A stretch of DNA of 64,000 bases from Candidatus Eiseniibacteriota bacterium (lineage in GTDB: Bacteria; Joyebacterota; Joyebacteria; Joyebacterales; Joyebacteraceae). Shown here one piece after another: positions 24,304-45,179 of the stretch. How positions within the stretch are numbered: the first letter of the stretch is position 1; every line of letters begins with the position of its first letter. The stretch is from assembly GCA_043819135.1 (NCBI GenBank), contig JBDRFG010000072.1:8240-72239 (forward strand), read 5' to 3'. Made by a program: the position numbers and the translations under genes. The notes under the pieces are model-generated. The model saw only the letters and a list, made by a program, of their open reading frames with translations. It searched no databases and was not told the DNA's origin.

Positions 24304-25488
24304 TTATCCCTTCTTGAGGTCGTCCACCATGTCGGTCCGCTCCCACGTGAAGTTCGGCTCCTCGCGGCCGAAGTGGCCGTAAGAGGCGGTGGCGAGATAT
24401 ATCGGTCGCCTGAGGTTCAGCCGCTCGATGATGGCGGCAGGTCTGAGGTCGAAGTGCTTCTTCACGATACCGACGAGTTCGCCGTCGGGGACCTCGCCGG
24501 TGCCCATCGTGTCCACCATGATCGATACCGGTTCCGCCACACCGATGGCGTAGGCTATCTCGATCTCGCATCTCCGCGCCAATCCGGCCGCGACCAGGTT
24601 CTTGGCCACGTGCCTCGCCGCGTACGAACCCGACCTGTCCACCTTGGTCGGATCCTTCCCGGAGAAACAGCCGCCACCGTGGCTTCCGAGCCCGCCGTAC
24701 GTGTCGACGATGATCTTCCGGCCGGTCAGCCCGCAGTCCGCGTGAGGACCACCCTTGACGAAGCGTCCCGTGGGGTTGACGAGCAGTTTGTACTCCCGAC
24801 CCATGACCAGTTCGGCCGGAAGTGTCGGCTCGACGACGTGAGTCCGGATGGCGTCGGCAAGCGAGTCCATTCTGACGTCCGGATCATGCTGCGTCGATAC
24901 GACCACAGTGTCGATCCTGGACGGGGTGCCGTCCTCGTACTCCAGAGTCACCTGCGTCTTGCCGTCGGGTCGAAGGTACTCGAGCGTTCCGTCCTCTCGC
25001 ACGTCGGCCAGCCTGCGCGCCAGCTTGTGCGCAAGGTGGATCGGCATGGGCATGAGTTCCTTCGTCTCGGCCGTCGCATAGCCAAACATCATCCCCTGGT
25101 CACCGGCCCCGCCCTCGTGCACTGCGTGTCCCGCCGAGTCGCCCAGCCAGATATCGGAGGACTGCTCCCCGATGGCCGTCACCACCGCGCACGTCTCCCA
25201 GTCAAAACCGTACGACGCGTCGGTGTAGCCGATGTCCCGGATGGTGTTGCGGACGACCGTGGGGATGTCAACGTAAGCCTCGTTCGTCGAGATCTCACCG
25301 GAGATGAATGCCATCCCCGTAGTGACGAGAGTCTCGCAGGCGACTCGACCCACGGGATCCTGAGTGAGAATGCCATCCAGAATGGCATCCGATATCTGGT
25401 CCGCGACCTTGTCGGGGTGTCCCCCGGTCACTGACTCGGATGTGAAAAGGTGCTTCTCCAAACGTGGCCTCCGTTCGTGTCGAATCAC
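24304..25488 (-). CDS. metK: S-adenosylmethionine synthetase
   Basis: [37 protein letters not shown]. Confidence 0.95.
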
Positions 25489-25508: not shown

Positions 25509-26540
25509 TCAGGCGCCTATCTCTATCTCCGACGAGTCTCCTACGTTCAGCTTCTGGTAGTGTCCCCTCACAATCGCGCCCTCGCCTATCAGCGATCTGC
25601 TGAGCAGGCTCCTCTCCACGACCGCTCCAGAACTGAGAATGCTGTCCCTCACCACCGAGTCCCGTATCGTCGCCCCGGCGGCAACCGAAACGTACGGCCC
25701 AACGACCGACCTCTCTATCACGGCGGTCTGGTCAATGGACACGGGGGGCAGGACGATGGAGCCCTCTATGCTCTTCCCGTTCCCGCCGGAACGTTCCAGG
25801 AGCACTCTGTTGGTGTCCAGCAGCGTCTCGGGAAGCCCGCAGTCGTGCCACCCCTGCACGGGGTAGACACCCATGTCCTCGCCGCGCTCCAACATCAGCT
25901 TGAGCGCGTCGGTCAACTGGAATTCGCCCTTCGTACGAATGTCCTTCTCCACGACTTCGGTCAGGCACTCGAACAGAAGGGGCGAATTGACGATGTAGTA
26001 GAGACCCACGATGGCCAGATTGCTCGGCGGCACATCGGGTTTTTCCACGACGCTTCTGACGCGTCCCTCATGCAACTCCACCACGCCGAAGCGCTGCGGG
26101 TCATCCACTTCCTTCACGCCGATCAGTGTGCGTCCGCCTCCCACCAGTTCCGAGTAGTCGGCCGTCACCACCGTGTCGCCCAGCACTATCAGAACCGGTC
26201 CGTCCTGAACACAGTCCCTAGTGAGATATATGGCGTGTCCCAGGCCCAGTCGCTCCTCCTGATGGACACAGCATACGTCGAGATGCGGGTAGGCCTCGGC
26301 GACGTACTCCGTGACCCTGTCACCCATGTAACCGGTCACCAGGACGATCTCCTTGATGCCGAGCGGCGCCAGTTCTTCGAGGATGTGCCCGACGATGGGC
26401 TTTCCAGCGACGGGAACCAGGGCCTTCGGAATCGTGTGGGTGTGCGGCCTGAGTCGCGTTCCGATCCCTGCGACAGGGATTATGGCCTTCATCGGCGTTC
26501 CTTTCAGGGGTCGGACCGAGCAGCGCGTCGGCCCGTTCAT
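25509..26540 (-). CDS. Sugar-phosphate nucleotidyltransferase with C-terminal left-handed beta-helix
   Basis: [16 protein letters not shown]...[15 protein letters not shown]-transferase motif. The first ATG overlaps the PGI/PMI stop by 1 nt. The alternative start MKAIIPV is 48 nt downstream. Confidence 0.8.
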
Positions 26541-27604
26541 CAGAATCGTGCGAGCTCTTTCTTGAGTCTGTCGATGGGCGTGACGGGCGTGGGATCGACC
26601 TCAGCCAGCATCGCGAGATAGAAACTCACGAAGTCCCCAAGCTGCACGAGCGACATGAGCCTGCCGAGCCACGTCGCACCCCGGCTGGTGGCGCTACGCA
26701 CTTCCACGCCTGTTGCGGCTATCGCCTCGCGAGTGATATCCATCCTGCGTACCACGCGCGGGTGGTCGTCCTCGCCCCGAAGGAACAACACCCGTGCGCC
26801 CCCGCCCATCGTGAGCGTACCGCTCCATCCCACTATCTCATTGTGGTTCATCTCAGGCAACTCGTTCCTGTGAGCAACCACCTTGGAATTCTCGGAGAAC
26901 TGCCCGCACCAGCGACTAGCCACGACCGACGTGCCCGGCGCCGCTCCGTAGATCACCGGCACACGCCCGAAGAACCACGATGCCAGTTCCTTCGCCTCGT
27001 TCCCGGCCGCGGGCGCCGCCGGCCCGAGCCGCCGAACTCCCTCCTCCGTCGTCACGATCGCATCCTGGACTTCATCGGCTGGATCCGGAGCCAGCCCGAG
27101 CCTTCCCAGAATGACGAGCAGGGGCACAAGACCGAAGCCGAGCGCCGCTCTCGGGGGATAACCTCCCGGCACTTTCACCACATCGTGCCCCGCTTCGGCG
27201 GCGATGAGGCCCACCTCTCCGCCTGTCGTCGAGCAGACAATCTTCGCCCCGCGTTCCCTCGCTTCCGCGTAGGCGGACAGCGTTTCCTCGGTGTTGCCCG
27301 AGTAGCTCGAGACGTAGACCAGGGTCGACGGTCCAACCCACGCGGGCAACGAATAGTCTCGCACCACGGAGAGCGGGACCAGCAGGCTGCCTGCCAGGTA
27401 TCCCGCGGCCAGTTCGCCGCCGATGGCGGATCCGCCCATGCCCACGACCGCGACGGCGCCGATGCCGTCGCTCCGCACGGTCAGCGGCGTTCTGCGACCC
27501 ACGTGCTCGGCCTCTCTCAGCTGGCCGGGAAAGCCCTCCAGATGCTCGTGCATTCCACCGGGGTCGCACGTGCGCATTCTCGCAAGGTCGTCGAGCATGC
27601 TCAT
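26540..27604 (-). CDS. Bifunctional phosphoglucose/phosphomannose isomerase (SIS domain)
   Basis: SIS motif VAVVGMGGSAIGGELAAGYL. Size matches the PGI/PMI family. 4-nt overlap with ptsI. Confidence 0.75.
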   Translation of the reverse strand: MSMLDDLARMRTCDPGGMHEHLEGFPGQLREAEHVGRRTPLTVRSDGIGAVAVVGMGGSAIGGELAAGYLAGSLLVPLSVVRDYSLPAWVGPSTLVYVSSYSGNTEETLSAYAEARERGAKIVCSTTGGEVGLIAAEAGHDVVKVPGGYPPRAALGFGLVPLLVILGRLGLAPDPADEVQDAIVTTEEGVRRLGPAAPAAGNEAKELASWFFGRVPVIYGAAPGTSVVASRWCGQFSENSKVVAHRNELPEMNHNEIVGWSGTLTMGGGARVLFLRGEDDHPRVVRRMDITREAIAATGVEVRSATSRGATWLGRLMSLVQLGDFVSFYLAMLAEVDPTPVTPIDRLKKELARF

Positions 27605-29385
27605 GAGATCATCTCCGTCTCGCTTATCTCAGGGAACTTGACCCTGAATATCTGTTCGAGGTAGCGACGGACCTCCGATCCCGTCTTCATCTTGAGCGCC
27701 TTCGCCACGACACGCCTGGCGTAACCGTAGCTTGTCGACCGGATGATGCTGCGGATCTCCGGCACGACCGACGGAGCGGCCGAGAGTTCGTCGACGCCGA
27801 ACCCCACCAGAAGCAGAGTCGCAAGAGGATCCCCCGCCATCTCTCCGCACACACCGACCCACTTCTTGTGTTTCCTCGCCGCTCTGACGGTCATGTCCAG
27901 CAGTCTCAGCACGGCAGGGTGAAATGGATCGTAGAGGTACGCCACCCTGTCGTTGCCCCGATCGACCGCCAACGTGTACTGGACCAGGTCGTTGGACCCG
28001 ATGCTGAAGAAGTCCGCTACCTCCGCCAGTTCGTCCGCTATCAGGGCGGCAGCCGGTGTCTCTATCATCACGCCAAGTGGGACCTTGTCATCGAACCCCT
28101 GTCCCCGCGCGCGCAGTTCCTGCTTCGCCGCCTCGAGGACCTGCCTCGCGTCCCTCACCTCGTGGAGCGCAGATATCATCGGTAGCATTATCTTAACGTT
28201 CCCGTGCGCGCTCGCGCGGAGGATCGCCCTGAGCTGGCGGAGCAACAGGTGCGGCTGAGAGAGGCTGCACCGGATTCCGCGCCAGCCGAGGAACGGATTC
28301 GCTTCCGGTTCCGGCGCTCCAAGCGGGCCGAACTTGTCCCCCCCGAGATCAACCGTCCGCACGACGACCGTCGCAGGCGCAGCCAGCGACACCACACCTC
28401 TGTAGGCCTCGTACTGCTCGTCCTCAGAGGGGATCTCGTCACCCATGATGAAGAGATACTCGGTCCTGAAGAGACCAATTCCCTCGGCCCCGTGTGATAT
28501 GGCGGAGCGCACCTCATCGGGCATCTCGATGTTGGCGGCCAGTTCGAATCGCCTGCCGTCCACGGTGATGGCAGGTGCGTCCTTCTCCGTCAGAAGCGCC
28601 CTCTCGAACTCCTCATGCTTGCGCCGGCGCTCCTGGTAGTAATCCAGGATCGCCTGGTCGTATCGGTAGATCAGCAGTCCGAGCGTCCCGTCTACGATGA
28701 TCTGCTCGCCCTGATTAATGACGTCCGTGGCTTCGTGCAGTCCGACCACCGCGGGGATCTGCAGCGATCTCGCCATGATGGCGGCGTGTGACGTGCGGCC
28801 ACCGACGTCGGTGGCGAATCCGACGACGCGTTCCTCGTGCATCGACGCCGTATGCGTTGCCGCGAGCTCGTGGGCGATCACGATGACGTCATCGTCAAGG
28901 TGGCGCAGCGACTTCTGCTTGCGTCCGAGAAGCCTCAGCAGGAGACGCCTCTCGATGTCCTTGATGTCAAACACGCGCTCACGCAGGTATTCGTCCTTGG
29001 TGCGCTCCATCACCTTCGTCACCTGGCCTATGGTCTCCGTCAGCGCAAAGGCGGCGCTTTGACGCTCCTCCCGAATGCGACGCTGGGTGCCCTCGATGAC
29101 CATGGAGTCCTTGAGGATCATGAGGTGAGCGTCGAAGATGCGCGCATGCGACTCGCCGAGCGATTCCTCAAGGCCCGCTCTCAGTCGTTCGAGTTCACGC
29201 GTGGTCTCCGCCACGGCGGACATGAAGGAACCGATCTCGCCCTCCACCTCCCCCAGACCGATCTCCTCTTCCTCGACGTGCGGCCGCTCGGTGTCGAGCA
29301 CGAACGCCCTGCCGATGACTATGCCGGAGGAGGCCGGTATGCCATCGAGAATCTCGCACTTACCTATCGCCTTGATGTCTATCAA
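27601..29385 (-). CDS. ptsI: Phosphoenolpyruvate-protein phosphotransferase (PTS Enzyme I)
   Basis: 594 aa. Active-site GGRTSHAAIMARSLQIPAVVG. PEP-utilising C-terminal domain. Confidence 0.95.
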   Translation of the reverse strand: MIDIKAIGKCEILDGIPASSGIVIGRAFVLDTERPHVEEEEIGLGEVEGEIGSFMSAVAETTRELERLRAGLEESLGESHARIFDAHLMILKDSMVIEGTQRRIREERQSAAFALTETIGQVTKVMERTKDEYLRERVFDIKDIERRLLLRLLGRKQKSLRHLDDDVIVIAHELAATHTASMHEERVVGFATDVGGRTSHAAIMARSLQIPAVVGLHEATDVINQGEQIIVDGTLGLLIYRYDQAILDYYQERRRKHEEFERALLTEKDAPAITVDGRRFELAANIEMPDEVRSAISHGAEGIGLFRTEYLFIMGDEIPSEDEQYEAYRGVVSLAAPATVVVRTVDLGGDKFGPLGAPEPEANPFLGWRGIRCSLSQPHLLLRQLRAILRASAHGNVKIMLPMISALHEVRDARQVLEAAKQELRARGQGFDDKVPLGVMIETPAAALIADELAEVADFFSIGSNDLVQYTLAVDRGNDRVAYLYDPFHPAVLRLLDMTVRAARKHKKWVGVCGEMAGDPLATLLLVGFGVDELSAAPSVVPEIRSIIRSTSYGYARRVVAKALKMKTGSEVRRYLEQIFRVKFPEISETEMIS

Positions 29386-29398
29386 ATGCCGACCGCCT

Positions 29399-29659
29399 CT
29401 ACTCTGATTCCGTCTCGAGGAACTCCGCCACCGCCTCCATGGCCTCCTGCTCGTCGGGGCCCTCCGCGGTCACGATCACTTCACTCCCGCACTCAGCCGC
29501 GAGCATCATGACCCCCATGATGCTCTTGGCGTCGACGGTGGTGTCCTCCTTGGTGAGCTTCACGTCCGACCGGAAGCGGGTAGCGAGCCGCACAAGCTCT
29601 GCGGCAGGCCGCGCGTGCAGGCCGTGCTTGCTTGCGAGAACTACCGTGCGCTCTATCAA
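29399..29659 (-). CDS. ptsH: Phosphocarrier protein HPr (His-15 and Ser-46 both present)
   Basis: 86 aa. SKHGLHARPAA (His15) and AKSIMGVMML (Ser46, HprK target). Confidence 0.95.
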   Translation of the reverse strand: MIERTVVLASKHGLHARPAAELVRLATRFRSDVKLTKEDTTVDAKSIMGVMMLAAECGSEVIVTAEGPDEQEAMEAVAEFLETESE

Positions 29660-29660
29660 C

Positions 29661-30431
29661 CTATCCTCCGTTCAGTCCCGCCAGGAGCAGCACCACGCCG
29701 CCGGCCGCTCCACCCAGAGCGACCAGCATCGCCGGGATCCTCACTCTGGATGCCGCGTACGCCAGCGCCACGAAGAGAACCATCATCAGGAGCCTCCAGG
29801 GCTCGGCCGTCCCGTCCCCACGAGTGACCGCCCCGGCGAGGATCAGTCCCACGCCGAAGGCCGCGAGGGCTCTGGTCCACCGCACGGCGCCCTTGAGACC
29901 GGGCCCCAGGACCTCTCTCGCGCCGGCCGGGCCCGCCGCGGCACCGACACCGACGCCCCGGGCCTTAAGCGCGAGGTGCGGGACGCTGTATACGCCCACG
30001 AGCACCAGCGGTGCCCAGACGATGCCCCTGAGGGCCAGAAGCACCGCCAGAGTGGCGGCCAGGGGCCTGAGCGCCCCCCACAGGAACGCATCGCCCGCCA
30101 TGCCGAGAGGGCTCGACAGTCCCTTCTTCAGCGATACGACGGCCGACTCGTCGGCGCCTGCAACCTCTGCCGCCGCTGCGGCTCCCAGGACGTAGGAGGC
30201 GAGCGTCGGGTTGGTGTTGAAGAACCCAAGGTGCCGCCTCAGAAACGCGCGTCTCGCCTCCTTGCTGCGTCCGCACCTGGCGAACACGGGCAGGATCGCA
30301 AAGCAGAACCCGACGTTCTGCATCCCGCGCGGATTCCACGCGGCCTGCAGAAAGAGCGAGCGCCAGAACATCCCCGCGCGCTCAGCGCGCGTCAGGGTAC
30401 CCACAGCTTTCTCGTCGGGCTGCGCTGACAA
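29661..30431 (-). CDS. PTS mannose/fructose/sorbose-family IID component
   Basis: N-terminal GMFWRSLFLQAAWNPRGMQNVGF matches the ManZ signature. Confidence 0.85.
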   Translation of the reverse strand: MSAQPDEKAVGTLTRAERAGMFWRSLFLQAAWNPRGMQNVGFCFAILPVFARCGRSKEARRAFLRRHLGFFNTNPTLASYVLGAAAAAEVAGADESAVVSLKKGLSSPLGMAGDAFLWGALRPLAATLAVLLALRGIVWAPLVLVGVYSVPHLALKARGVGVGAAAGPAGAREVLGPGLKGAVRWTRALAAFGVGLILAGAVTRGDGTAEPWRLLMMVLFVALAYAASRVRIPAMLVALGGAAGGVVLLLAGLNGG

Positions 30432-30538
30432 GGAACCTCCGTGTCACAGACACCACGCTTCCGGTCACGCCCGACTCAACCCCGCGGGCCACACGGACAG
30501 GGAGCACGCTCGCCCCTGCTGAACGACCTCTGCAGTGC

Positions 30539-31216
30539 TCACGCCAGGAGCACGAACGCGAGCCCCGCCGCGAGCCCGGCGACGATGTACGGGCCCTCGC
30601 TCTTCGCCCTTCCCCCGGCCGCGATCGCCACAGCGGCTATCGGGGCGGCCCACAGTGCCGTGGGGAAAACCCCTCTGACCTCGACCGACGCCAACGGTCT
30701 CAGCAGGAGCGAAGTACTCAGTGCCGTCGCGGCCAGGAGAGCGGCGGTAGCGAATCTCGTCACCAGCCCCAGAACTACGGCGGCAGTCACTCCCCGCGGG
30801 TCTCCGTCGTCCGCTCGCGATTCCGCGAGCGTCGAGTACCGCAGGTTCAACCTGCGAACGCCCGATGTCACCTTCTGTCCCGCCGCGCCCGCACACAGCC
30901 CGACGACGACGGCCCCCGCGATGGCCAATCCCTCGGGCATGCCTGAACGAACAAGGATGGCCCCGGCGCCCACGCCGGCCACGCCGGCCACGGCTCCGTC
31001 CGGGAAAGGCGCGGCACCGACCGGCAACACTCCCATCCAGACCAGCTGGAGCGTGGCGCCAACCACGAGTCCGAGGCCGGTATCGCCAACCACGACACCG
31101 GCGACGCTCCCGACCACCAGGGGCTGCGACAGCATCACCTGAAAGGCGGCCGTTGCGTCGACCGAGAGAACGCCGCCGAGCAGCGACAGAACCAGTATCA
31201 TCTGGATATCAGACAT
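30539..31216 (-). CDS. PTS mannose-family IIC component
   Basis: Start reassigned to MSDIQMIL. ManY-like ...GDTGLGLVVGATLQLVWMGVLPVGAAPFPD. Confidence 0.8.
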   Translation of the reverse strand: MSDIQMILVLSLLGGVLSVDATAAFQVMLSQPLVVGSVAGVVVGDTGLGLVVGATLQLVWMGVLPVGAAPFPDGAVAGVAGVGAGAILVRSGMPEGLAIAGAVVVGLCAGAAGQKVTSGVRRLNLRYSTLAESRADDGDPRGVTAAVVLGLVTRFATAALLAATALSTSLLLRPLASVEVRGVFPTALWAAPIAAVAIAAGGRAKSEGPYIVAGLAAGLAFVLLA

Positions 31217-31294
31217 ATGCCCGCTTCCGCACTGACGGTTCGCGCGCGCCGCGCAGGCAGAGAGCCCGCACCTCGCCATCGCGCCGGAAGTCTG

Positions 31295-33484
31295 CTACTC
31301 GGCGGACAACCGAGGGAATTCGAACTCCACTCCGAAGCTCAGTCGCTCCCCACGCCCCGCCCTGACTGGCCAGCGCGTGACCAGCGCTATACCCTGAAAG
31401 ACCCGCTCGAGGCCTCCCTCTGAGTGAGACGCGGTGTCCAGCGGCCAGGTCCAGACGCCGGCGGCAGGCTCGCAGGACACGGAGACCCGCTGCCCTCTGA
31501 GGCGGTCGTCCACGGTCATCGCGGTTACCCCATCCAGGTTCTTCTTCTGTCTGAGTCCGCTACCCTCTTGGCCGTCGACGTGGAACGACACCCACTCCCT
31601 GTCGGGCGTCAGAAAGGACAGGTTCCACTCCGGTGCGAAGAGAACGTCCAGTTCTCCGTCCGGAACGAGGTCGTACTCGACTCGGACCGTGCCCGAACCC
31701 GTCAACCACACGCGCTTCTCGAGGGTCACGGGGCAGGCTGCTCCCGCGCTCTGCACGGCTCCGAACCTCTTCATCTCCACGCCGACCGAGTCCTCTCTCC
31801 TTACCAGTTCGAACTCGTAGCTGCTCCAGGCAAAATCGCCCAGTTCACCGACGCCGCTCTCGATATCCGAACGCCTGGCGCCGCGGGCGAAGAAGTGGTC
31901 TATCGCCGCCACACGCGGGTGCGAGTCCGCTCCGGCAAGGTACGTGAGCCCGTCCTCCTTGGCCACAGGGACGTCGTGGATGTTCCGCACCTTCTCACAC
32001 TCGATGCTGCACGTGTCGGGAATGTCGTCATGGTAGGCCTCATCGTAGCGCGACATGGTCGCCAGTGCGTTCCAATCCGCCGACCTCACGTCCAGCTCGA
32101 AGATCGTGCCTCCGCGTGAAGGCGCGACGTAAACGTTCGCGTGGTGCGACTCGAGGAGAACTTCGTCGCGACCGTCAAGATCATGGTCCATGATCTCGGC
32201 GCGGTCCCACGTTCCACCCCGGGCTTCTTCTATCAACCGCTCCGCCCTTATCAGGTGGTCGTAGATAGCGGTTCTCAGGTGTGGAAGGTACAGACCGCCG
32301 AAGATCCCATGCCAGTACGCGCAGTTACACTGACCCCTCCACAGATCGCGCGTCGCCTCCTCGAGCACGGCCGCGTCGACCGAGGCCAGAACGCCTCCCG
32401 CCGACTCCGTCGCGCCGGGGGGACCGTCCGCAGCCCCGAGCATGTCGGATGCCTGTCGCACCGCCGCGATCTTGTCGCTGACGCGCATCATCTTCCTGAC
32501 CATCAGATTCGATTCCTCGTACTTGGACAGGAAGCCCTTCCAGGTCCCTCCCGAAACGAACGGCCCCCACTCCTCCAGAACACCGTCGTCTCCGAGCTTG
32601 CCGATGAACCGCTCGTAGCTTCGTCTGGCCTTCGTCGGCAGGGCCCACTCCATCATCTCCGGATACGACGAGGTCGGCAGGTAGGCACGCCCCCTCGGCG
32701 CCACATCGTCGACGATCTCCGCGAACGTTGCCGTCTTCACCCAGTCCTGGTTCTCCGAGAGCAGCTTGAGGAAGCGTTTCAGCCATCCGCCGACGTGCAC
32801 GTGCGCGTGAGTGCCGGGCCAGACACCGAACTTCTCCCCGTCGTCACCGAACACCGCGACGTGACCGTCGCCCCGTTCGGCGACCGAGCGCAGGATAGAC
32901 AGGGTCTCGTCCGGATCGGCGAACGGGATCGCGTACCGGAGTCTCTTGCTGATAGGGAAAGCGTGGACGGCGACGCCCTGCTCTTCGACGAGGAAAGGCC
33001 CGACGAGGTCGTCGTCCTCTATACCGGCGAGGCGGAATTCGTAGTCGTCGAGCGGCAGATACTCCATCCCCGACTCGCGGATGGTCTTCGCCAGACGCGG
33101 CTCCCAGACCCTCTCTGCCAGCCACATACCTCGGGGTCGCGCCCCAAAACGGTCGGACACGTAATCCGTCATCATCCGGATCTGACCGCGGGCGTCCCGC
33201 TCGGGGATCGCGCACAGGATTGGCTCATAGAAGGCGCCGCCGAGGACCTCGACCTGGCCCCTGGCGACCAGGACGCGCACGCGCTCGATGTAGTCGGGAG
33301 CGTGCTCTTCGTACCACTCCAGGAGCGGCCCCGTGTTGTGAAGCACGATCTTGATCTCAGGGAACTGCTCTATGGTCTCAAGGAACGGAAGGTAGGCCCG
33401 CGTGTATGCGTCCTGAAACACCTCCGGGAGGTTACCGACAGGCTGGTGGTTGTGTATGCAGAGGACAAGCGTGACACCGTTCAT
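31295..33484 (-). CDS. Glycoside hydrolase family 57 enzyme (4-alpha-glucanotransferase / amylopullulanase-like)
   Basis: N-terminal CIHNHQPVGN GH57 hallmark. Catalytic-region WLAERVWEP. Start reassigned to MNGVTLV (ATG near 33484), which has an AAGGAG RBS 10 nt upstream. Confidence 0.85.
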   Translation of the reverse strand: MNGVTLVLCIHNHQPVGNLPEVFQDAYTRAYLPFLETIEQFPEIKIVLHNTGPLLEWYEEHAPDYIERVRVLVARGQVEVLGGAFYEPILCAIPERDARGQIRMMTDYVSDRFGARPRGMWLAERVWEPRLAKTIRESGMEYLPLDDYEFRLAGIEDDDLVGPFLVEEQGVAVHAFPISKRLRYAIPFADPDETLSILRSVAERGDGHVAVFGDDGEKFGVWPGTHAHVHVGGWLKRFLKLLSENQDWVKTATFAEIVDDVAPRGRAYLPTSSYPEMMEWALPTKARRSYERFIGKLGDDGVLEEWGPFVSGGTWKGFLSKYEESNLMVRKMMRVSDKIAAVRQASDMLGAADGPPGATESAGGVLASVDAAVLEEATRDLWRGQCNCAYWHGIFGGLYLPHLRTAIYDHLIRAERLIEEARGGTWDRAEIMDHDLDGRDEVLLESHHANVYVAPSRGGTIFELDVRSADWNALATMSRYDEAYHDDIPDTCSIECEKVRNIHDVPVAKEDGLTYLAGADSHPRVAAIDHFFARGARRSDIESGVGELGDFAWSSYEFELVRREDSVGVEMKRFGAVQSAGAACPVTLEKRVWLTGSGTVRVEYDLVPDGELDVLFAPEWNLSFLTPDREWVSFHVDGQEGSGLRQKKNLDGVTAMTVDDRLRGQRVSVSCEPAAGVWTWPLDTASHSEGGLERVFQGIALVTRWPVRAGRGERLSFGVEFEFPRLSAE

Positions 33485-33510
33485 TGACAGACGCTCCTTG
33501 GGACCCGCCC

Positions 33511-34002
33511 TCACTTCTCTTCGAGCGCTCGAAGCAGGACGGCCAGGTCCTGCGGCTGCGCCTGCGGGACGTCGCCGGCCGTAAGCTTGGTGCCCCCAGC
33601 CATGATCACCTTCATGGCCGCGACGTCCTCATCATCGACGAACACATAAGGGAGAAGCTCTCGCTTTCCCTCGGCGTAGTGCATTCCTCCGATGTTCGCC
33701 TCGGAGATATCGAGGCCGGCCCGGATGAGCGCCAGGAGGTCACCCGGGCTCTCCACGATGACGAACGTGCGCTCGCCGTCCCACGTGCCCGCCTTGAGTC
33801 CCTCGGCGAAACCCTCGCGCGTCACTATCGACACGCGGACTCCCATTGCGTCCGTGTCTGCATAGAGGTCGCACCTCCAATCGCAGCAGGCAACCTCGTC
33901 GCTGACAAGGACCATATGCTCGGGTGAGAGCCAGGCACCCCAGGCCATCGTCACCTGGCCATGAATCAACCGGTCGTCGACCCTGACGAGTACGAACGCC
34001 AT
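33511..34002 (-). CDS. PTS mannose-family IIB component
   Basis: RVDDRLIHGQV phosphohistidine motif of IIB(Man). Confidence 0.85.
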   Translation of the reverse strand: MAFVLVRVDDRLIHGQVTMAWGAWLSPEHMVLVSDEVACCDWRCDLYADTDAMGVRVSIVTREGFAEGLKAGTWDGERTFVIVESPGDLLALIRAGLDISEANIGGMHYAEGKRELLPYVFVDDEDVAAMKVIMAGGTKLTAGDVPQAQPQDLAVLLRALEEK

Positions 34003-34029
34003 GCACGAACTCCCTTGACCGTACTCCCG

Positions 34030-34428
34030 TCAGACAATGCGCACGGCGTCTCGGCCGCGCTCCCTGACCATGTGGATCAGTTCCACCACCCCGGTGCGGT
34101 CCCGCTTCACGAAGAACTCGAGGAGCATCATCAGATTAACGCCGGTCAGTGCCCGGACGCCTCCTCCAGATGCCACGATCTCCTGACAGACGTGGTGACA
34201 GCTTCCGCCCGGCATGTCGCTTATCAGCACCACCTCACACTCGGAAGCCAGACTCGCCACGGCGGCCTCGACCGCCTCCTTGAGTTCAGTGAGACTCATG
34301 CCGGTGTTGGACACCGCCACCCAGTTCGACTGCGTCCCGAGAATCCCCTGCACGGCATCCAACAGGCACTTCCCGACATTGCCGTGTGCCACGATAACGC
34401 ACCCTATGCGGTTGCCCTGGCTGCTCAC
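34030..34428 (-). CDS. PTS mannose-family IIA component
   Basis: IGCVIVAHGNVGKCLLDAVQGILG (IIA-Man His). GTG start forms GTGA with the hprK stop. The track ORF is spuriously extended. Confidence 0.8.
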   Translation of the reverse strand: MSSQGNRIGCVIVAHGNVGKCLLDAVQGILGTQSNWVAVSNTGMSLTELKEAVEAAVASLASECEVVLISDMPGGSCHHVCQEIVASGGGVRALTGVNLMMLLEFFVKRDRTGVVELIHMVRERGRDAVRIV

Positions 34429-35396
34429 TCGTCGTCCCCTTGCGTTGCGCGCAGCACGCCTGCCTGCCTTGCAATGGCGTCCCTCTGGCGTCTGTCGAAG
34501 TCCTTCGCCGCGTTGATGCCCCTGAGCTTGAGGAGATAGTTCAGAGCAATGACCTCGGAAATGACGGTGATGTTCTTCCCGAGGACCAGAGGGAGCGTCA
34601 CCGCCGGGATCTCGACCCCAAGGATCTCCGACGTCTCGTCCTCGAAGCCCAATCGTTCGTAGTCGGACAGTTCCGACCACGCCGCCAGCTTGACCTCCAC
34701 CTCGATGCGCTTCCGCTGTCGAAAGGCCCTGGTCCCGAACATCGCCTGGACGTCAATGATGCCAACGCCCCGGATCTCCATGTAGTTCTGCAGGAGCTCG
34801 CTGCCGTAGCCGACCAGGAAACCTCTGCGCGTCCGCATGACGCAGACGGCATCATCGGCGACGAGCCTGTGCCCGTTCGCCACGAGATCGAGACCGCACT
34901 CGCTCTTCCCGATGCCGCTCTTGCCGGTGAAGAGAAGCCCCACGCCGTTGACGTCCACGAGCGTGCCGTGCACGATCTTCTGAGGTGCGAGCAGGTCCTC
35001 CAGCCCCGAGACGAGCTCCCTCACGAGCCGCTCGGACGTCAGCGGCGTCGCAAGGACGGAAACGCCGCGCGCGTTGCCCAGCTCCACGAGCCGCGCGGGT
35101 GGCACCTGGCCGTCTGTGACTATGATGCACGGGACGGGCGGAGCGCACAGCCTCTCGAACGCTGCGACGCGTGCGCCCTCCTCCAGAGAGTCGACGTAGC
35201 TCACCTCGTGCGCACTGAGAACCTGAACGCGCTCAGCGTGGAATCCGTCGGCAAACCCGGCAAGAAACAGACCAGGGAGGCTGACTCCGCTGTCGCGTAT
35301 GACACCGCCTGAGCACTCCGGCCCGGTCGCGGCGGACAGGGACAGACTCTCCCCCATCCGCATCACAAGTGAGCGGGTCGTAAGTTCTTCGTTCAC
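34425..35396 (-). CDS. hprK: HPr kinase/phosphorylase
   Basis: P-loop GKSGIGKSECGLDL. HprK C-terminal domain. Confidence 0.9.
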   Translation of the reverse strand: MNEELTTRSLVMRMGESLSLSAATGPECSGGVIRDSGVSLPGLFLAGFADGFHAERVQVLSAHEVSYVDSLEEGARVAAFERLCAPPVPCIIVTDGQVPPARLVELGNARGVSVLATPLTSERLVRELVSGLEDLLAPQKIVHGTLVDVNGVGLLFTGKSGIGKSECGLDLVANGHRLVADDAVCVMRTRRGFLVGYGSELLQNYMEIRGVGIIDVQAMFGTRAFRQRKRIEVEVKLAAWSELSDYERLGFEDETSEILGVEIPAVTLPLVLGKNITVISEVIALNYLLKLRGINAAKDFDRRQRDAIARQAGVLRATQGDDE

Positions 35397-35464
35397 GCTC
35401 GTGCCTCCCGCCGGAGCGACGCCTCCCGCCGGAGCGGGGCCTCACGCCGCGCTCGCTCCCGCCG

Positions 35465-35983
35465 CTACGCCGGCTCCACAAGCCCGTAGTCCCCGTCGCC
35501 GCGACGGTAGATGACGTTGATCTTCTCGGTCTCCGAGTTCGTGAAGACGAGGAACGCAACCTTGAGTTCGTCGAGTTCGCTGAACGCCTCGGCCGGCGTC
35601 ATGGCCTTCGACGCGAGCTTCTCCGGCACAATGCCGAGGTCCTCCATGGAGGCGCCGGCAAACGCCATGGCCACGTCGGCCGTAGCATCCACACCCTTGT
35701 GGTGCCTGATGCGCTCCTTGTGTCGCCGTATCTGCCGCTCCACCTTCTCTATCGAACGATCGAAGGCGGACCTCATGTCATCGGCCGTCTGCTCGCTCGA
35801 GATGACGGCACGGGACGCATGCACGGTGACATCCGCGATGCAGCGATGTCCTTCCGTGGTGAAGACGACGTGCGCCTCGTCCACGCGGTCGAAATAGCGT
35901 GCCAGGCGTTCTATCCTGCTGTCGACGTGCTCCCTCAACTCCGGCTCGAGTTCACAGTGTCTGCACGTGAGCCTCGTCCTCAT
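35465..35983 (-). CDS. hpf: Ribosome hibernation promoting factor, long form
   Basis: Start reassigned to MRTRLTCRH. S30AE domain plus C-terminal dimerisation domain ...EKINVIYRRGDGDYGLVEP. Confidence 0.85.
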   Translation of the reverse strand: MRTRLTCRHCELEPELREHVDSRIERLARYFDRVDEAHVVFTTEGHRCIADVTVHASRAVISSEQTADDMRSAFDRSIEKVERQIRRHKERIRHHKGVDATADVAMAFAGASMEDLGIVPEKLASKAMTPAEAFSELDELKVAFLVFTNSETEKINVIYRRGDGDYGLVEPA

Positions 35984-36891
35984 GCCCGCTCCTTTCCCAA
36001 CATGCTGCCTTCCGTGGACGGGCGTCGCTGGCTCAGCGCCGCGACCGCCTCGTGAGCACGATACGAACTCCTGACGAACGGCCCCGCAGACACCCAACGG
36101 AACCCCATCGACCTGCACATCACGGCGAGTTCGTCGAATTCCTCGGGCGGCACGAAACGCGCCACCGGGTAGTGGTCAACCGACGGCCTGAGATACTGAC
36201 CCAGGCAGACGATCTCCGCCCCCGCCGACCTGATATCCGCGAGAGTTCGTTCGAGTTCCTCTCGCGTCTCTCCTATTCCCAGCATCAACGACGACTTGAC
36301 GAACGCCCCGGACCTCGAGGCTGCGGCGTGCGACAGCACGTCGAGCGATCGCTCGTAGCGCGCGCGCCCTCTCACCATCGGGTAGAGCCGCCGGACCGTC
36401 TCGACGTTGTGACCGAAGACGTCCGGCCCGGATCCGAGAACTACATCGATGGCCTCCCGCGAGCCGTTGAAGTCCGGAACCAGCACCTCGACACCCACGC
36501 CGGTCCTGGAGGCGCGCACGGCCCGGACGGTCGCGGCGAATTGAGACGCCCCGCCGTCCGCTAGGTCGTCCCGCGTCACAGACGTCACCACCACGAAATC
36601 GAGCCCGAGCGTCGTGGCCGCCGAGGCCACCTCATCGGGCTCCGCTGGGTCCAGCGGGAGCGGATCTGCGTGTGAGACCGCGCAGAATCTGCAGTCCCGG
36701 GTGCATCTGTCTCCCAGGATCATGAATGTCGCCGTTCCCCGGGAGAAGCAATCGACACGATTCGGACACTTCGCCTCGTCGCACACGGTGTTCAGACGAT
36801 GCGACTCAAGCGTCTTCCGAACCCGCCTTGTCTCCCCGAAGTCGGTCATAGGCTTCGTCAGCCAGCCCGGAAGGCGCACCCCCATCTTCAC
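35980..36891 (-). CDS. lipA: Lipoyl synthase
   Basis: Auxiliary cluster CDEAKCPNRVDC plus radical-SAM CTRDCRFCAV. Confidence 0.9.
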   Translation of the reverse strand: MKMGVRLPGWLTKPMTDFGETRRVRKTLESHRLNTVCDEAKCPNRVDCFSRGTATFMILGDRCTRDCRFCAVSHADPLPLDPAEPDEVASAATTLGLDFVVVTSVTRDDLADGGASQFAATVRAVRASRTGVGVEVLVPDFNGSREAIDVVLGSGPDVFGHNVETVRRLYPMVRGRARYERSLDVLSHAAASRSGAFVKSSLMLGIGETREELERTLADIRSAGAEIVCLGQYLRPSVDHYPVARFVPPEEFDELAVMCRSMGFRWVSAGPFVRSSYRAHEAVAALSQRRPSTEGSMLGKERA

Positions 36892-37133
36892 TCGACGTCT
36901 ATCCTCCCCAGCCTCTCACCCGGCGCGACCGTCGAGTCCTCCTGCGCCAGGATCTCGGCCAGAGTTCCCGTGTAGCGAGAGATTACAGCCATCGCAGTCT
37001 TGTCCTCGACCGACTCCACCACTAGCAACTCGTCGCCCTCGTGCACGGCAGCACCCGGGTCCACCTTCCAGTACGAGATGGTGAACTCGATCGCTTCCGT
37101 CTCCGCCGCTTCCAGGATGATGTCTCTGAGCAC
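36888..37133 (-). CDS. Stand-alone lipoyl/biotinyl-attachment domain protein (GcvH-like carrier)
   Basis: 81 aa. ...LLVVESVEDKTAMAVIS... with a candidate modifiable Lys. 4-nt overlap with lipA start. Confidence 0.55.
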   Translation of the reverse strand: MLRDIILEAAETEAIEFTISYWKVDPGAAVHEGDELLVVESVEDKTAMAVISRYTGTLAEILAQEDSTVAPGERLGRIDVE

Positions 37134-37155: not shown

Positions 37156-38679
37156 TCAGATCTCCTTGCGGAGATTGGCCCTCAGGATCCTCATCTGCTC
37201 GCGATACTTAGCCACCGCGCGCCGCGATATTGTGAACCCCATCCTCCTGAGTTCCTCCGCCACCTTCTGATCCGAGAGCGGCTTCTTCTTGTCTTCCTTG
37301 CTGATGATATCCTGCATCGCGTCTCGTACGGCCTTGGAGGCGATCTCGTCGCCGTTACTCGTCCGTATGCCACTGGAGAAGAAGTACTTCAGCTCGAAGG
37401 TCCCCCTCGGTGTCTGCACGTACTTGCCGCGCGTCACCCGACTGACCGTCGACTCGTGCATGCTGACGTCATCGGCTATCTGCTGGAGTGTCAGAGGTTT
37501 GAGGGCCGACACGCCCTTGTTGAAGAAACCGATCTGGGCGCGGACTATGCTTTCTGTCACTCGGACCATCGTACGACGCCGATTCTCGATGCTCTGCACG
37601 ATCCACCGCGCCGCCTTGAGCTTCTTGGATATGAATTCCTTCTCTTCTGAAGCGGAGTCGGTGGACAGAATGCGACGATAGGTCGGATTGATGCGCACGC
37701 GGGGAACGTCCGAATCGTTGAGGTAGACGACGTAGTCCCCGTCGACCTCCTCGATCACAAGATCGGGCGTGATGTAGCCGGGGTCGCCGATGATGGGATC
37801 GATGCGAGGCCTCGGGTCGAGCTTTGCGATCTCGCCGATAGCCTCCCGCAGGTCCTCGGTCGTGACAGAGAGCTTCCTTCTGATGGCGTCGTACTTGCAC
37901 GACTTCAGTTCCTCGAAGCTGGTCGAGACCACCTTCGCGGCCAGCGTGTCCCCGAGTCCCTTTCGCTGCAGCTGGAGAAGCAGACACTCCTCTATGGTCC
38001 GCGCCGCGATGCCAGCGGGGTCGAGCGCCTGCAGGATCTTGAGCGCCCTCTCAACGGTCTCGACGTCGGTCTTGAGCGCCCTGGCGATCTCTTCCAGAGT
38101 GTCCCGGACGTAGCCGTCCGAATCCAGCTCGTCGATAATGTACTCGGCGATGCCGACGAGCGCGTCGTCCTCGCATTCCATGTGAAGCTGGTGTTTCAGC
38201 TCGTCCTCGAACGTCACCATGGCCACGGGGACGCGCTCGAACCGCTCGTCATCGTCATCCCTCGCGAAGTTCTGCCCGTAGGCGTGCGAGTAGACGTCGT
38301 CCAGGTAGTCGTCCCAGTCGAGCTCCTCGCCGGTGGCGTCCTTCTCCTCCGTGCTTTCGTCCTTCTCCTCCGCGCTCTCGGCCTTCTCCTCCGCGCTCTC
38401 GGCCTTCTCGGCCTCCGGTTCAGGCGCCTCCTCGGTCTGCCGGTCGTCCGCCGGCCCCTCCCGGTCCTCTGTCGCCTCCGGTTCGGCCACCTCCTTCTCG
38501 AGTTCCGCTTCTTCCTCCTCGAGACGCTCGAGCAGCGGATTCTGGAGCAGCTCCTGCTTGAGGAACTGCTCCAGCTCCAGCGTCGACACCTGGAGGATCT
38601 TGAGCGCCATCTGCAGCCGCGGCGTCATCACAAGCTGCTGCTGCATTCGCATGTGAATTCCGTGCTTAAGATCCATCAC
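37156..38679 (-). CDS. rpoN: RNA polymerase sigma-54 factor
   Basis: RpoN box ARWIVQSIENRR, HTH, core-binding region. Acidic linker with tandem repeats. Confidence 0.95.
   Translation of the reverse strand: MMDLKHGIHMRMQQQLVMTPRLQMALKILQVSTLELEQFLKQELLQNPLLERLEEEEAELEKEVAEPEATEDREGPADDRQTEEAPEPEAEKAESAEEKAESAEEKDESTEEKDATGEELDWDDYLDDVYSHAYGQNFARDDDDERFERVPVAMVTFEDELKHQLHMECEDDALVGIAEYIIDELDSDGYVRDTLEEIARALKTDVETVERALKILQALDPAGIAARTIEECLLLQLQRKGLGDTLAAKVVSTSFEELKSCKYDAIRRKLSVTTEDLREAIGEIAKLDPRPRIDPIIGDPGYITPDLVIEEVDGDYVVYLNDSDVPRVRINPTYRRILSTDSASEEKEFISKKLKAARWIVQSIENRRRTMVRVTESIVRAQIGFFNKGVSALKPLTLQQIADDVSMHESTVSRVTRGKYVQTPRGTFELKYFFSSGIRTSNGDEIASKAVRDAMQDIISKEDKKKPLSDQKVAEELRRMGFTISRRAVAKYREQMRILRANLRKEI
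38335..38412 (-). repeat. About 27-nt tandem repeats in the rpoN acidic linker (encode EKAESAEEK units)
   Basis: Seen in sequence: tccttctcctccgcgctctcggcc repeated about 2.5 times. Confidence 0.7.
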
Positions 38680-38776: not shown

Positions 38777-39505
38777 TCAGAGACGGAACCGCTCTCCCAG
38801 ATACAGCTTCCGCGCCTCCTCGTTCGACGCCAACTCGTCGGCGCTCCCCGAAAGCAGGATCTCACCCTCGTACAGGATATAGGCTCTATCGGTCACCGAC
38901 AACGTCTCGCGAACGCTGTGATCGGTAATTAGGATCCCTATGCCTCTGTCCCTGAGTCTTCTGATGATCGCCTGAATGTCCTGAACCACTATCGGGTCGA
39001 TGCCGACGAAAGGCTCGTCCAGCAATAAGAAAGCCGGTCGAGTCACGAGCGCCCGCGTGATCTCCACTCGCCTCCGCTCCCCTCCGGAGAGCGTGCGGGC
39101 TGAACGATCGCGCAGCTCCTCGATTCCCAGCTCGCCCAGGAGCTCCGCCAGCCTCTCTTCGCGCTCCGCCCGACTGCCGCCGAGCGTCTCCAGAATGGCG
39201 CTGACATTCTGCGCTACTGTCAGCCCCCTGAAAATGGACGACTCCTGTGACAGGTACCCCACGCCGAGGCGGGCGCGCCGGTACATCGGGAGTCGGGTGA
39301 CATCGTCACCGTCGAGGTGGACCGCGCCCTCATCCGGCGTCAGAAGCCCGACGATCATGTGGAAAGTCGTTGTTTTCCCGGCGCCGTTGGGGCCCAGAAG
39401 TCCCACGACTTCCCCCTGCTCGAGACTGAGCTTCACGTTATTGACCACGGCGCGCCCGCCGTAGCGCTTGACCAGTCCCGTCACGCCGAGGGTGCGGGGT
39501 GCTAC
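38777..39505 (-). CDS. lptB: LPS export ABC transporter ATP-binding protein LptB
   Basis: Walker A GLLGPNGAGKTT, signature LSGGERRR, Walker B ILLLDEP. Start probably GTG near 39505. The track ORF is N-extended. Confidence 0.85.
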   Translation of the reverse strand, partial: VAPRTLGVTGLVKRYGGRAVVNNVKLSLEQGEVVGLLGPNGAGKTTTFHMIVGLLTPDEGAVHLDGDDVTRLPMYRRARLGVGYLSQESSIFRGLTVAQNVSAILETLGGSRAEREERLAELLGELGIEELRDRSARTLSGGERRRVEITRALVTRPAFLLLDEPFVGIDPIVVQDIQAIIRRLRDRGIGILITDHSVRETLSVTDRAYILYEGEILLSGSADELASNEEARKLYLGERFRL

Positions 39506-39527
39506 CGCACCTCCGTTTCCCGGTCTG

Positions 39528-40085
39528 TCAGTCTTCCTCGACAAGCTCCCCCTCCGGCGTCCGCACGAACGCCTTGAAGTCACTCTTCACCCTGATGTTC
39601 TTGAGGTCGGGGTCGGCCTCTACGCCGACGCCCGTCATCACGTCCTTGCCTTTGGTCACGCGAACGGGACGGTCCGATTCGACCTTCCCCTTCCGCTCGT
39701 CCCAGTTGAGTCTCTCGGTTGTCAGAATAGTGCCGTCGGCCGCGTACACCACGACGTTGCCGAGCACTTCCATATCATTGGTCCGTCGGGCCAGGATGCC
39801 CTCGTCCGCTGTGAGCGTCGACCGTATCTCACCCGCCTCATCGAAGAAGTCGACTCGAAGGACCATCATCTCGACACGGTCCGCGTCCTCGTAGACGAGC
39901 GCGTGCTCCGCCGAGATGGACCAGACCCTGTCGCCCTCTCGCGTCTGGGTCAGCGTGAACCCGTCCACCTCCTGGTCGGCGAGCGTTCTCGATCTCCTGA
40001 GCCCGCCCTCCTCATCTCCACCGCACCCGAAGAGCAGCAGCAGTGCGAGGACGGCGGCGAGTCTGAGGACAAGGGGCGGCTTCAT
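39528..40085 (-). CDS. LptC/LptA (OstA-like) family periplasmic LPS-transport lipoprotein
   Basis: Start at MKPPLVLRLAAVLALLLLFGCGG (signal plus lipobox). About 185 aa beta-jellyroll-type sequence. Sits between kdsD and lptB as lptC/lptA do in E. coli. Confidence 0.6.
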   Translation of the reverse strand: MKPPLVLRLAAVLALLLLFGCGGDEEGGLRRSRTLADQEVDGFTLTQTREGDRVWSISAEHALVYEDADRVEMMVLRVDFFDEAGEIRSTLTADEGILARRTNDMEVLGNVVVYAADGTILTTERLNWDERKGKVESDRPVRVTKGKDVMTGVGVEADPDLKNIRVKSDFKAFVRTPEGELVEED

Positions 40086-40291
40086 CGTACTCCGTTCTCT
40101 TGTGTGGCAATCTCGCATCGCCTCGTGAAATGCATCCGGCGCCTGCGTGCGCGCCGCGCTCCCAATATACCCGAGAAGCGCCCGCTCCTCAAGGCGTCCC
40201 GCCAACTACGGCGGAAGACCCGACGAGGTTCTCAAGTGTGGAGGATAGCAGAATGCTGAATGAGGGGTCAACAAGCAGGCTCGGGCAGGCG

Positions 40292-41903: not shown

Positions 41904-45179
<3,276 letters not shown>

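Follow-up and report, generated by a model that had tools for sequence, protein, structure and literature searches.

Organization of the hprK-PTS-GH57 gene cluster

Why should an enzyme of alpha-glucan metabolism be encoded in the middle of a phosphotransferase system (PTS)? The question is raised by a 64,000-nucleotide stretch of DNA from Candidatus Eiseniibacteriota (GenBank assembly GCA_043819135.1, contig JBDRFG010000072.1, positions 8,240 to 72,239 of the forward strand; hereafter the window), in which a gene for a glycoside hydrolase family 57 (GH57) enzyme lies between the EIIB and EIIC genes of a mannose-family (Man) PTS encoded downstream of hprK. We lean toward the reading that these genes make up a carbon-status operon, conserved and probably co-transcribed, through which the turnover of storage glucans would be linked to the phosphoenolpyruvate (PEP)/HPr relay. 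Genes were called by scanning translated open reading frames (ORFs) against Pfam and NCBIfam. The window has a GC content of 64% and carries nearly every gene on the minus strand. Read 5' to 3' on that strand, the gene order is rpoN, a lipoyl-domain protein gene, lipA, hpf, hprK, IIA(Man), IIB(Man), GH57, IIC, IID, HPr, EI, a bifunctional phosphoglucose/phosphomannose isomerase (PGI/PMI) gene, a nucleotidyltransferase gene, metK and ahcY. The genes from hprK to PGI/PMI are as follows:

34425-35396, minus strand: hprK, full-length HPr(Ser) kinase/phosphorylase with N and C domains (TIGR00679, 311.9 bits against a cut-off of 240)
34030-34428, minus strand: EIIA(Man), 132 aa, GTG start (PF03610)
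33511-34002, minus strand: EIIB(Man/sorbose type), 163 aa (PF03830, E=1.7e-35)
31295-33484, minus strand: GH57 of 4-alpha-glucanotransferase/alpha-amylase type, 729 aa from ATG (PF03065, PF09094, PF09095)
30539-31216, minus strand: EIIC(Man family), 225 aa, divergent (PF03609, 71.6 bits)
29661-30431, minus strand: EIID(Man family), 256 aa, TTG start (PF03613, 124.8 bits)
29399-29659, minus strand: HPr (ptsH) with His15 and Ser46 (PF00381; TIGR01003, 108 bits)
27601-29385, minus strand: Enzyme I (EI), PtsI type, without a GAF domain (TIGR01417, 606.7 bits; the Pfam matches are three PEP-utiliser domains only)
26540-27604, minus strand: PGI/PMI (NF006426, 364.6 bits against a cut-off of 295)

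The order hprK-IIA-IIB-GH57-IIC-IID-HPr-EI, first noticed in a preliminary description of the sequence, was borne out by these assignments, all of the ORFs being on the minus strand and each having Pfam or NCBIfam support; the EI gene (27601-29385) falls outside the interval 29399-35396 to which that description applied. The spacing had been described as tight or overlapping throughout, which holds for most junctions. The GTG start of IIA overlaps the hprK stop codon (GTGA), the gap between IIB and GH57 is 26 nt, with an AAGGAG ribosome binding site (RBS) 9 nt before the GH57 ATG, IID and HPr are separated by 2 nt, and the PGI/PMI start overlaps the EI stop codon (ATGA). The GH57-IIC and IIC-IID spacers, at 78 nt and 107 nt, do not fit that description. 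That all of the genes are intact, run in one direction and meet at overlapping or short junctions counts in favor of a carbon-status operon, as does the apparent translational coupling that the junctions show.

A consensus scan found no excess of terminators within the cluster, the number falling under the shuffled expectation, and the terminator and sigma-70 promoter scans were uninformative. A sigma-54 promoter in the cluster was considered and rejected, as matches to TGGCAC-N5-TTGCW were at or below chance (14 observed vs 17.5 expected). In the 68-nt spacer between hpf and hprK (35397-35464, minus strand), we observed a tandem direct repeat of ~16 nt, CGCTCCGGCGGGAGGC, in two copies with GT between them. 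Each copy contains a short GC hairpin and a Shine-Dalgarno-like GGGAGG, and the second copy is the hprK RBS; the repeat could be an attenuator or translational control element. Long antisense ORFs lacking family support were also present, one of 329 aa opposite IID (29439-30428, plus strand) and one of 448 aa opposite GH57; these are the usual artefacts of high-GC DNA.

Conservation of the hprK-GH57-ptsH neighborhood

Two motif-seeded scans with the window GH57, one of GTDB species genomes and one of JGI metagenomes, yielded 160 loci, which we annotated by phmmer using the window proteins together with rapZ, GH57 branching enzyme (GH57-BE), DUF4912 and MlaD queries. The matches listed are mostly relatives of 36-43% identity, and the linkage frequencies given here are samples rather than censuses. 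Members of the GH57 clade were linked to hprK or PTS genes at 22 of the 160 loci among the matches listed, and the hprK/ptsH-GH57 neighborhood occurred in at least eight phylum-level lineages, despite differing flanks and EII components. The preliminary description had called the placement of GH57 unusual; far from being peculiar to one genome, the arrangement is conserved across multiple phyla.

Four independent long contigs of Eisenbacteria (L001-L004, with GH57 identities of 66, 58, 52 and 41%) all carry hprK-(rapZ)-IIA-IIB-GH57-IIC-IID-HPr-EI-PGI-NTP-metK-ahcY. The synteny of IIB-GH57-IIC, for which a search had been proposed, held on all of the Eisenbacteria contigs that we examined, even on the one with a GH57 of 41% identity. 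The same order from hprK to EI, here called architecture A, was present on contigs labelled Krumholzibacteriota (L034), Firestonebacteria (L036) and Elusimicrobiota (L052), as well as on the metagenome contigs L088-L090, L093, L113, L123, L150, L158 and L164; L136, ended by a contig edge, has GH57-IIC only. A misassembly or unique insertion is excluded by the occurrence of the same order on many independent contigs. The absence of EIIA-Ntr and RapZ, to which the preliminary description had drawn attention, is true of the window cluster; that of RapZ proved to be specific to the lineage, as four deeper relatives (L004, L093, L113 and L123) do have the gene.

Architecture B, hprK-(rapZ-IIA)-GH57-HPr-(EI), has no IIB, IIC or IID at the locus and was found in NC10/Methylomirabilis (L021 and L031), in Hydrogenedentota (L028) and at L098. 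The Hydrogenedentota locus and L098 read hprK-GH57-HPr-EI. Both NC10 loci encode a short HprK of 199 aa (7835-8434 in L021) that consists of the C-terminal domain only, followed by rapZ, IIA(Man), GH57 and HPr; after HPr come unrelated genes for an ABC transporter and lipoate ligases (LplA/B). At L167 we found GH57-HPr-EI only, with no hprK match in the 2.8 kb upstream, and L096 and L118 have hprK-GH57 only, with ~1 kb of downstream sequence. Architecture C, hprK-IIA-IIB-mlaD-GH57, was seen in Zixibacteria (L042) and Ignavibacteria (L051) and has no ptsH at the locus. A 298-aa MlaD-domain protein is always encoded directly before GH57 at the Ignavibacteria/Zixibacteria loci (L042, L048, L051, L057, L065, L070, L081 and L099), with or without hprK-IIA-IIB upstream.

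Because the position of GH57 between hprK and ptsH is common to architectures A and B while the EII genes and the flanks vary, the link appears to be with the HprK/HPr module and not with the permease. Loss of genes from A would be enough to give all of the architectures, and a single ancient origin of the arrangement is therefore plausible.

Other arrangements of these genes were seen among the relatives. Directly before IIA-IIB-IIC-IID-HPr, at the usual place of hprK, two loci of a different lineage (L085:8045-11060 and L086:7174-11069) encode a Ser/Thr protein kinase (Pkinase), with no hprK and no GH57; a Man-type PTS may here receive its input from another kinase. One relative on a 140 kb contig (P0149 / P0060) has an apparent IIC-IID fusion of 392 aa (PF03609 and PF03613) together with a truncated GH57 of 437 aa, either a true fusion and decay or a frameshifted assembly.

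Glycogen-type context and persistence of the linkage

A GH57 branching enzyme gene, a DUF4912 gene or both lay within a few kb of GH57-clade members at 31 of the 160 loci, again among the matches listed; examples are Margulisiibacteriota/WOR-1 (L018, L050 and L060), Bacillota (L054 and L067) and many metagenome contigs. Because these genes adjoin it, the clade as a whole appears to serve intracellular alpha-glucan metabolism of the glycogen type. The Elusimicrobiota locus (L052:3854-15667) contains three GH57 genes, two of the branching-enzyme type with BE_C and one of the TLGT type, among PTS genes: rapZ, IIA, IIB, IIC, IID, HPr and EI are interleaved with the GH57 genes and with a gene for a DUF4912/glucodextranase-B protein. 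It is the most extreme merger of a glycogen cluster and a PTS cluster among the loci seen. The idea, already put forward in the preliminary description, that the PTS may be coupled to glycogen or maltodextrin turnover is strengthened by the glycogen-type neighbors and stays an inference from gene context; the part of it that assigned the tie to the permease gives way to a tie with hprK/ptsH, given L021, L028, L031 and L098.

Could the order simply have been carried along? In such a scenario, GH57 would have landed once in an ancient string, kdsABCD-lptCB-rpoN-hpf-hprK-pts-pgi-metK-ahcY, and traveled with it thereafter, with no specific relationship to the PTS. The wider string from pyrG/kdsA to ahcY/lptFG is indeed conserved in the Eisenbacteria and in L087, and a neighbor-joining tree of 85 GH57 sequences roughly follows the phyla, with PTS-linked members scattered over several deep branches. 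L087 is the contig of a distant IID homologue, found by a word-indexed search that reached few relatives outside the Eisenbacteria. It reads kdsA...rpoN-hpf-hprK-IIA-IIB-IIC-IID-HPr-EI-PGI-NTP-metK-ahcY-ftsK, lacks GH57 and is otherwise unchanged, and its distance from the window is similar to that of L004 and L034. However, hprK-GH57-ptsH is conserved in NC10, Hydrogenedentota and L098 despite flanks that are not; GH57 remained in place where the EII genes beside it disappeared; and in Elusimicrobiota two further glycogen enzymes and DUF4912 were recruited to the same cluster. Gene order that is not under selection rarely outlasts phylum-level divergence. We therefore regard passive carriage as unlikely. 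That GH57 stayed while its surroundings were replaced in NC10, Hydrogenedentota and L098 argues for selection behind its retention between hprK and ptsH across phylum-level divergence, as far as gene order can tell.

The GH57 enzyme

The window GH57 is 100% identical to an NCBI protein from a metagenome-assembled genome (MAG) of Candidatus Eisenbacteria (P0001), named 'alpha-amylase/4-alpha-glucanotransferase domain-containing protein', and the 4-alpha-glucanotransferase of T. litoralis (PDB 1K1W) matches it over its full length (E=3.6e-135). The 729-aa length, the IHNHQP and WLAERVWEP motifs and the AAGGAG RBS attributed to it in the preliminary description are all present. All five GH57 regions can be recognized (HNHQP, GQVEV, WLAERVW, GDDGEKFG and CNCAYWHG). 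Alignment places WLAERVW on the nucleophile E123 of 1K1W and GDDGEKFG on the acid/base D214, and the catalytic Glu (region III) and Asp (region IV), as well as the cores of all five regions, are invariant in 85 of 85 aligned homologues. These features are those of CAZy family GH57, and the intact catalytic residues rule out an inactive enzyme. The combination of PF03065 with AmyA-A_glucT_m (PF09094) and AmyA-gluTrfs_C/DUF1926 (PF09095), together with the full-length alignment to 1K1W, indicates the TLGT-like 4-alpha-glucanotransferase/alpha-amylase subgroup, within a family whose transferase, amylase and branching activities are not separable from sequence alone (PMC11046441).

Like the T. litoralis enzyme, the window GH57 is built of three parts, with a helical domain between the catalytic barrel and a beta-sandwich at the C terminus. 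Unlike it, the window protein is bacterial and of mesophilic type and has an insertion of ~35 residues after residue 349; its gene belongs to a PTS context and not to a cluster for maltodextrin or glycogen. Because region I begins at residue 11, the protein has no room for a signal peptide and is predicted to be cytoplasmic. Recent horizontal insertion of the gene was considered and rejected, since there is no compositional signal (GC content at third codon positions 0.81 vs 0.75-0.86 in the neighbors) and the GH57 tree follows the phyla.

PTS components and HprK

The residues on which the relay depends are kept at the PTS-linked loci: His15 and Ser46 of HPr in 25 of 25, the phosphorylatable His of IIA in 23 of 23, and the His of the LIHGQV motif of IIB in 22 of 22. 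The Walker A Lys of HprK (GIGKS) was found in 24 of 25 and the active-site His of EI in 19 of 21, the one and the two gaps being cases in which that part of the ORF is off the contig. The pairing of Walker A in HprK with Ser46 of HPr in a KSIM context is that expected of an HprK/P-HPr(Ser46) pair, and the window HPr scores as HPr, not NPr.

The EII components have the characteristics of the Mannose-family PTS (TC 4.A.6), with a IIA of the Man fold and a IIB of the sorbose type that each carry the conserved His, a separate IID subunit, and EI and HPr genes in the same operon. Both IIC and IID exceed the Pfam gathering scores. In profile comparisons with the PDB, IIC matched ManY of 6K1H (E=8e-17, positions 9-203 of 225) and IID matched ManZ of 6K1H (E=1.2e-60, positions 3-204 of 259), and IID retains its core motifs RHxxFFNTxP and GD..W..RP. 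As to the non-transport role of the IIC/IID pair that the preliminary description had raised, these features speak neither for it nor against it. By NCBIfam cut-offs, the proteins belong to none of the substrate-defined subfamilies (ManXYZ, Aga, sorbose): IIA, IIB, IIC and IID all score far below them, for example 57 against 278 for IIC and 110 against 293 for IID. Because ptsN and rapZ are absent, neither the cluster nor the annotated ORFs of the window giving a PTS_EIIA_2 or RapZ match, the cluster does not belong with the enterobacterial PTS-Ntr rpoN operons. Nor is it a permease-less regulatory PTS of the alpha-proteobacterial type, as IIB, IIC and IID are present and intact; absence of these three is a feature of the NC10 and Hydrogenedentota variants only, at the level of the locus. 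The check for ptsN, rapZ, glgA, glgC and glgP that the preliminary description had proposed was answered for the window: none of these genes, nor glgB, is among its annotated ORFs, while ~12 ORFs of 100-200 aa and one of 441 aa have no Pfam match and stay unassigned.

A complete relay and permease, both intact, and a PGI/PMI gene after EI would also be expected of an ordinary uptake-and-catabolism operon, in which the Man-type EII would bring in a sugar from the medium and GH57 would act as the catabolic enzyme downstream, and glycoside hydrolase genes within Man-PTS operons, such as levDEFG-sacC of B. subtilis, are common in Firmicutes. However, GH57 has no signal peptide and could not supply the transporter with sugar from the outside; the substrates of Man-family EIIs are monosaccharides; and no GH57 enzyme is known to act on phosphorylated sugars. 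The linkage also persists where IIC and IID are missing from the locus, and the NC10 relatives are methane oxidizers, from which sugar import is not expected. Because the enzyme is predicted to be cytoplasmic and its linkage survives without the permease, we consider an uptake operon very unlikely.

A proposed role for GH57 in the PTS relay

In the carbon-status operon that we favor, a PEP phosphorelay gated by HprK and consisting of EI, HPr, EIIA(Man), EIIB(Man) and EIIC/D would have a cytoplasmic storage alpha-glucan GH57 as an integral member. GH57 would disproportionate or hydrolyze cytoplasmic alpha-1,4-glucans, giving glucose or short dextrins, and with its synthesis tied to HprK/HPr, glucan turnover would follow the PEP/pyruvate and fructose-1,6-bisphosphate/ATP signals of the relay. 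For the window lineage, a complete EII(Man) may phosphorylate a hexose (glucose or mannose) to hexose-6-phosphate, which the adjoining PGI/PMI would pass into glycolysis, and Ser46-phosphorylated HPr would throttle the relay at high glycolytic flux. The position of PGI/PMI directly after EI fits the products of a Man-type EII and counts in favor of this proposal. A precedent for PTS control of a glycogen enzyme is available in E. coli, where HPr binds and phosphorylates glycogen phosphorylase (PMC13324651; PMC11046441). As in that case, a general PTS protein would be tied to an enzyme of glycogen turnover; the E. coli target is a GT35 phosphorylase encoded elsewhere, whereas the window candidate is a GH57 encoded inside the pts operon. 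Judged from gene content and order, the storage-glucan enzyme is probably under the control of the PTS carbon-status relay.

Several observations weigh against a carbon-status operon. The order could be ancestral inheritance without present coupling, as the tree approximates the phyla and the variants are derivable by gene loss. The linkage to GH57 is dispensable, because L087 has the whole operon without it. Internal promoters could lie in the 78-nt and 107-nt spacers. Among the sampled loci, the carriers of PTS-linked GH57 are all uncultivated MAGs or metagenome contigs. As to a catabolic vs an anabolic role, the glycogen content of a Sulfolobus GH57-amylase mutant was lowered and not raised (PMC11046441). 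Finally, the 85-sequence alignment contained no residues specific to PTS-linked GH57s that would be candidates for a docking or phosphorylation site, just two weak columns, and for this reason there is no sequence pointer to such a site.

This last result bears also on a refinement of the carbon-status reading, in which control would be direct and post-translational, with HPr (as His~P or Ser-P), EIIA(Man) or EIIB(Man) binding or phosphorylating GH57 and so switching the turnover of glucan. GH57 is kept exactly between hprK and ptsH where the locus encodes only soluble PTS proteins (NC10, Hydrogenedentota and L098), and precedents exist in the action of E. coli HPr on GlgP (PMC13324651) and in the binding of the Brucella EIIA(Man)-like protein to SucA of the lipoate-dependent 2-oxoglutarate dehydrogenase (PMC2937029). 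With neither a conserved residue nor an insertion separating PTS-linked from unlinked GH57s, and with the synteny equally well explained by co-expression alone, we hold direct control to be rather doubtful. We are similarly tentative about a bolder proposal, that GH57 is a dedicated HprK/HPr partner: either HPr, EIIA or EIIB would switch the enzyme by binding or His-phosphorylation, or EII(Man) would phosphorylate glycogen-derived glucose from the cytoplasmic side.

Comparison with known systems

Traits of several known systems come together in the cluster: the proteobacterial lptB-rpoN-hpf neighborhood, the alpha-proteobacterial hprK-EIIA(Man)-NPr regulatory PTS and a Man-family EII with the canonical four subunits. 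The window permease resembles E. coli ManXYZ (PDB 6K1H/7DYR) in having phospho-His residues in IIA and IIB and in the homology of IIC and IID to ManY and ManZ, with the core motifs kept. It differs in that IIA and IIB are separate proteins, and the C-terminal ~20 residues of IIC and ~55 residues of IID lie outside the ManY/ManZ profile match. The TLEM motif of ManY is TLQL in the Eisenbacteria. A further difference from ManXYZ is the GH57 gene between IIB and IIC in an operon downstream of hprK.

The levDEFG-sacC operon of B. subtilis, which is connected with sigma-54, likewise combines Man-family IIA-IIB-IIC-IID genes with one for a glycoside hydrolase. SacC is secreted and has an external polymer as its substrate, and its gene follows IID. 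In the window, by contrast, GH57 is predicted to be cytoplasmic, its gene has IIB and IIC on its two sides, and sigma-54 promoter matches did not exceed chance.

Alpha-proteobacteria such as Brucella and Sinorhizobium have hprK-ptsM(EIIA-Man)-ptsO clusters that adjoin sahH, the gene for S-adenosylhomocysteine hydrolase (PMC2937029). Similarly, in the window hprK is directly upstream of EIIA(Man), an HPr-family gene follows and ahcY (23043-24299) is nearby. The NC10 order short HprK-rapZ-IIA-GH57-HPr is especially similar to the alpha-proteobacterial regulatory PTS, in which HprK is also short. Neither a permease nor a glucan enzyme is part of the alpha-proteobacterial system; the window, unlike it, has a full-length HprK, sugar-type EI and HPr, IIB, IIC and IID, and GH57.

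The E. coli rpoN operon is rpoN-hpf-ptsN-rapZ-npr, in the lptB-rpoN-hpf neighborhood of proteobacteria (PMC13104625), and Geobacter has rpoN-hpf-hprK (PMC2725144). Common to these and to the window is lptB-rpoN-...-hpf followed by PTS regulatory genes. In contrast to the E. coli operon, the window lacks EIIA-Ntr and rapZ, has lipA and a lipoyl-domain gene inserted, and has gained the Man-family EII and GH57.

Flanking genes

The genes on either side of the cluster are as follows:

42718-44385, minus strand: pyrG
41904-42737, minus strand: kdsA
41367-41900, minus strand: kdsC-like
40292-41329, minus strand: kdsD-like (SIS and CBS)
39528-40205, minus strand: lptC
38777-39583, minus strand: lptB
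37156-38679, minus strand: rpoN (sigma-54), 507 aa (Pfam Sigma54_AID, Sigma54_CBD and Sigma54_DBD)
36888-37133, minus strand: 81-aa lipoyl/biotinyl-domain protein, Biotin_lipoyl (PF00364, E=1.6e-10)
35980-36891, minus strand: lipoyl-synthase-like radical-SAM protein, lipA (PF04055)
35465-35986, minus strand: long hpf, S30AE and C-terminal domain (PF02482, PF16321)
25509-26540, minus strand: sugar-1-phosphate nucleotidyltransferase (best NCBIfam match rmlA_long, 229 bits, under the cut-off of 320)
24304-25488, minus strand: metK
23043-24299, minus strand: ahcY

Those for which no match is given were called in the same Pfam/NCBIfam scan. The rpoN-hpf-hprK cluster of the preliminary description stands as regards the PTS genes downstream, but rpoN and hpf are not adjacent, the genes at 36888-37133 and 35980-36891 lying between them. 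The 81-aa lipoyl-domain gene between rpoN and lipA was also called in L001-L003, and a lipA-like homologue occurs at the same place in L001-L004, L088, L090, L093, L098 and L123; in L004 and some other relatives, lipA alone lies between rpoN and hpf. Given the binding of Brucella EIIA(Man) to SucA (PMC2937029), there may by analogy be a connection between the PTS and lipoate.

Downstream, the nucleotidyltransferase gene is syntenic in L001-L004, L034 and L087. The S-adenosylmethionine (SAM) cycle genes metK and ahcY follow the pts-pgi genes in every relative (L001-L004, L034 and L087), and this PTS-SAM-cycle neighborhood is of unexpectedly deep conservation. The remaining genes of the window are housekeeping genes: pnp, ribF, truB, infB, nusA, a gene for a 2151-aa SprA-like protein, lptFG, kdsB, and genes for a hybrid histidine kinase and a glnS-type tRNA synthetase. 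The sole match of the 2151-aa ORF (13857-20312, minus strand) is to SprA_N, associated with type IX secretion and gliding, at residues 1099-1494; an M28 peptidase gene adjoins it.

Implications for PTS outputs and storage-glucan metabolism

Our literature searches gave no account of hprK/pts operons that contain GH57 or DUF1926 genes, nor of hprK/ptsH together with glycogen or 4-alpha-glucanotransferase genes, and nothing relevant on the PTS of Elusimicrobium and Eisenbacteria. The parts belong to known families; their conserved, multi-phylum arrangement appears to be undescribed, and it points to a putative link, likewise undescribed, of storage-glucan metabolism with the PTS as a carbon sensor.

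What HprK and PTSs of incomplete or atypical composition do in phyla that are Gram-negative or uncultivated has long been asked, and the known PTS outputs are scattered: SucA in Brucella, GlgP in E. coli and polyhydroxybutyrate in Ralstonia. The occurrence of GH57 between hprK and ptsH in at least eight phyla makes the turnover of storage glucans a candidate for a conserved output of the relay. It also gives a physiological context, a glycogen cluster or a PTS cluster, to a large and biochemically uncharacterized clade of bacterial TLGT-like GH57 enzymes. If EII(Man) did act on glycogen-derived glucose from the cytoplasmic side, PEP would replace ATP and glucokinase in storage-glucan catabolism, and if GH57 were a dedicated HprK/HPr partner, it would be the first defined metabolic output for the widespread 'orphan' HprK/PTS of non-proteobacterial Gram-negative phyla.

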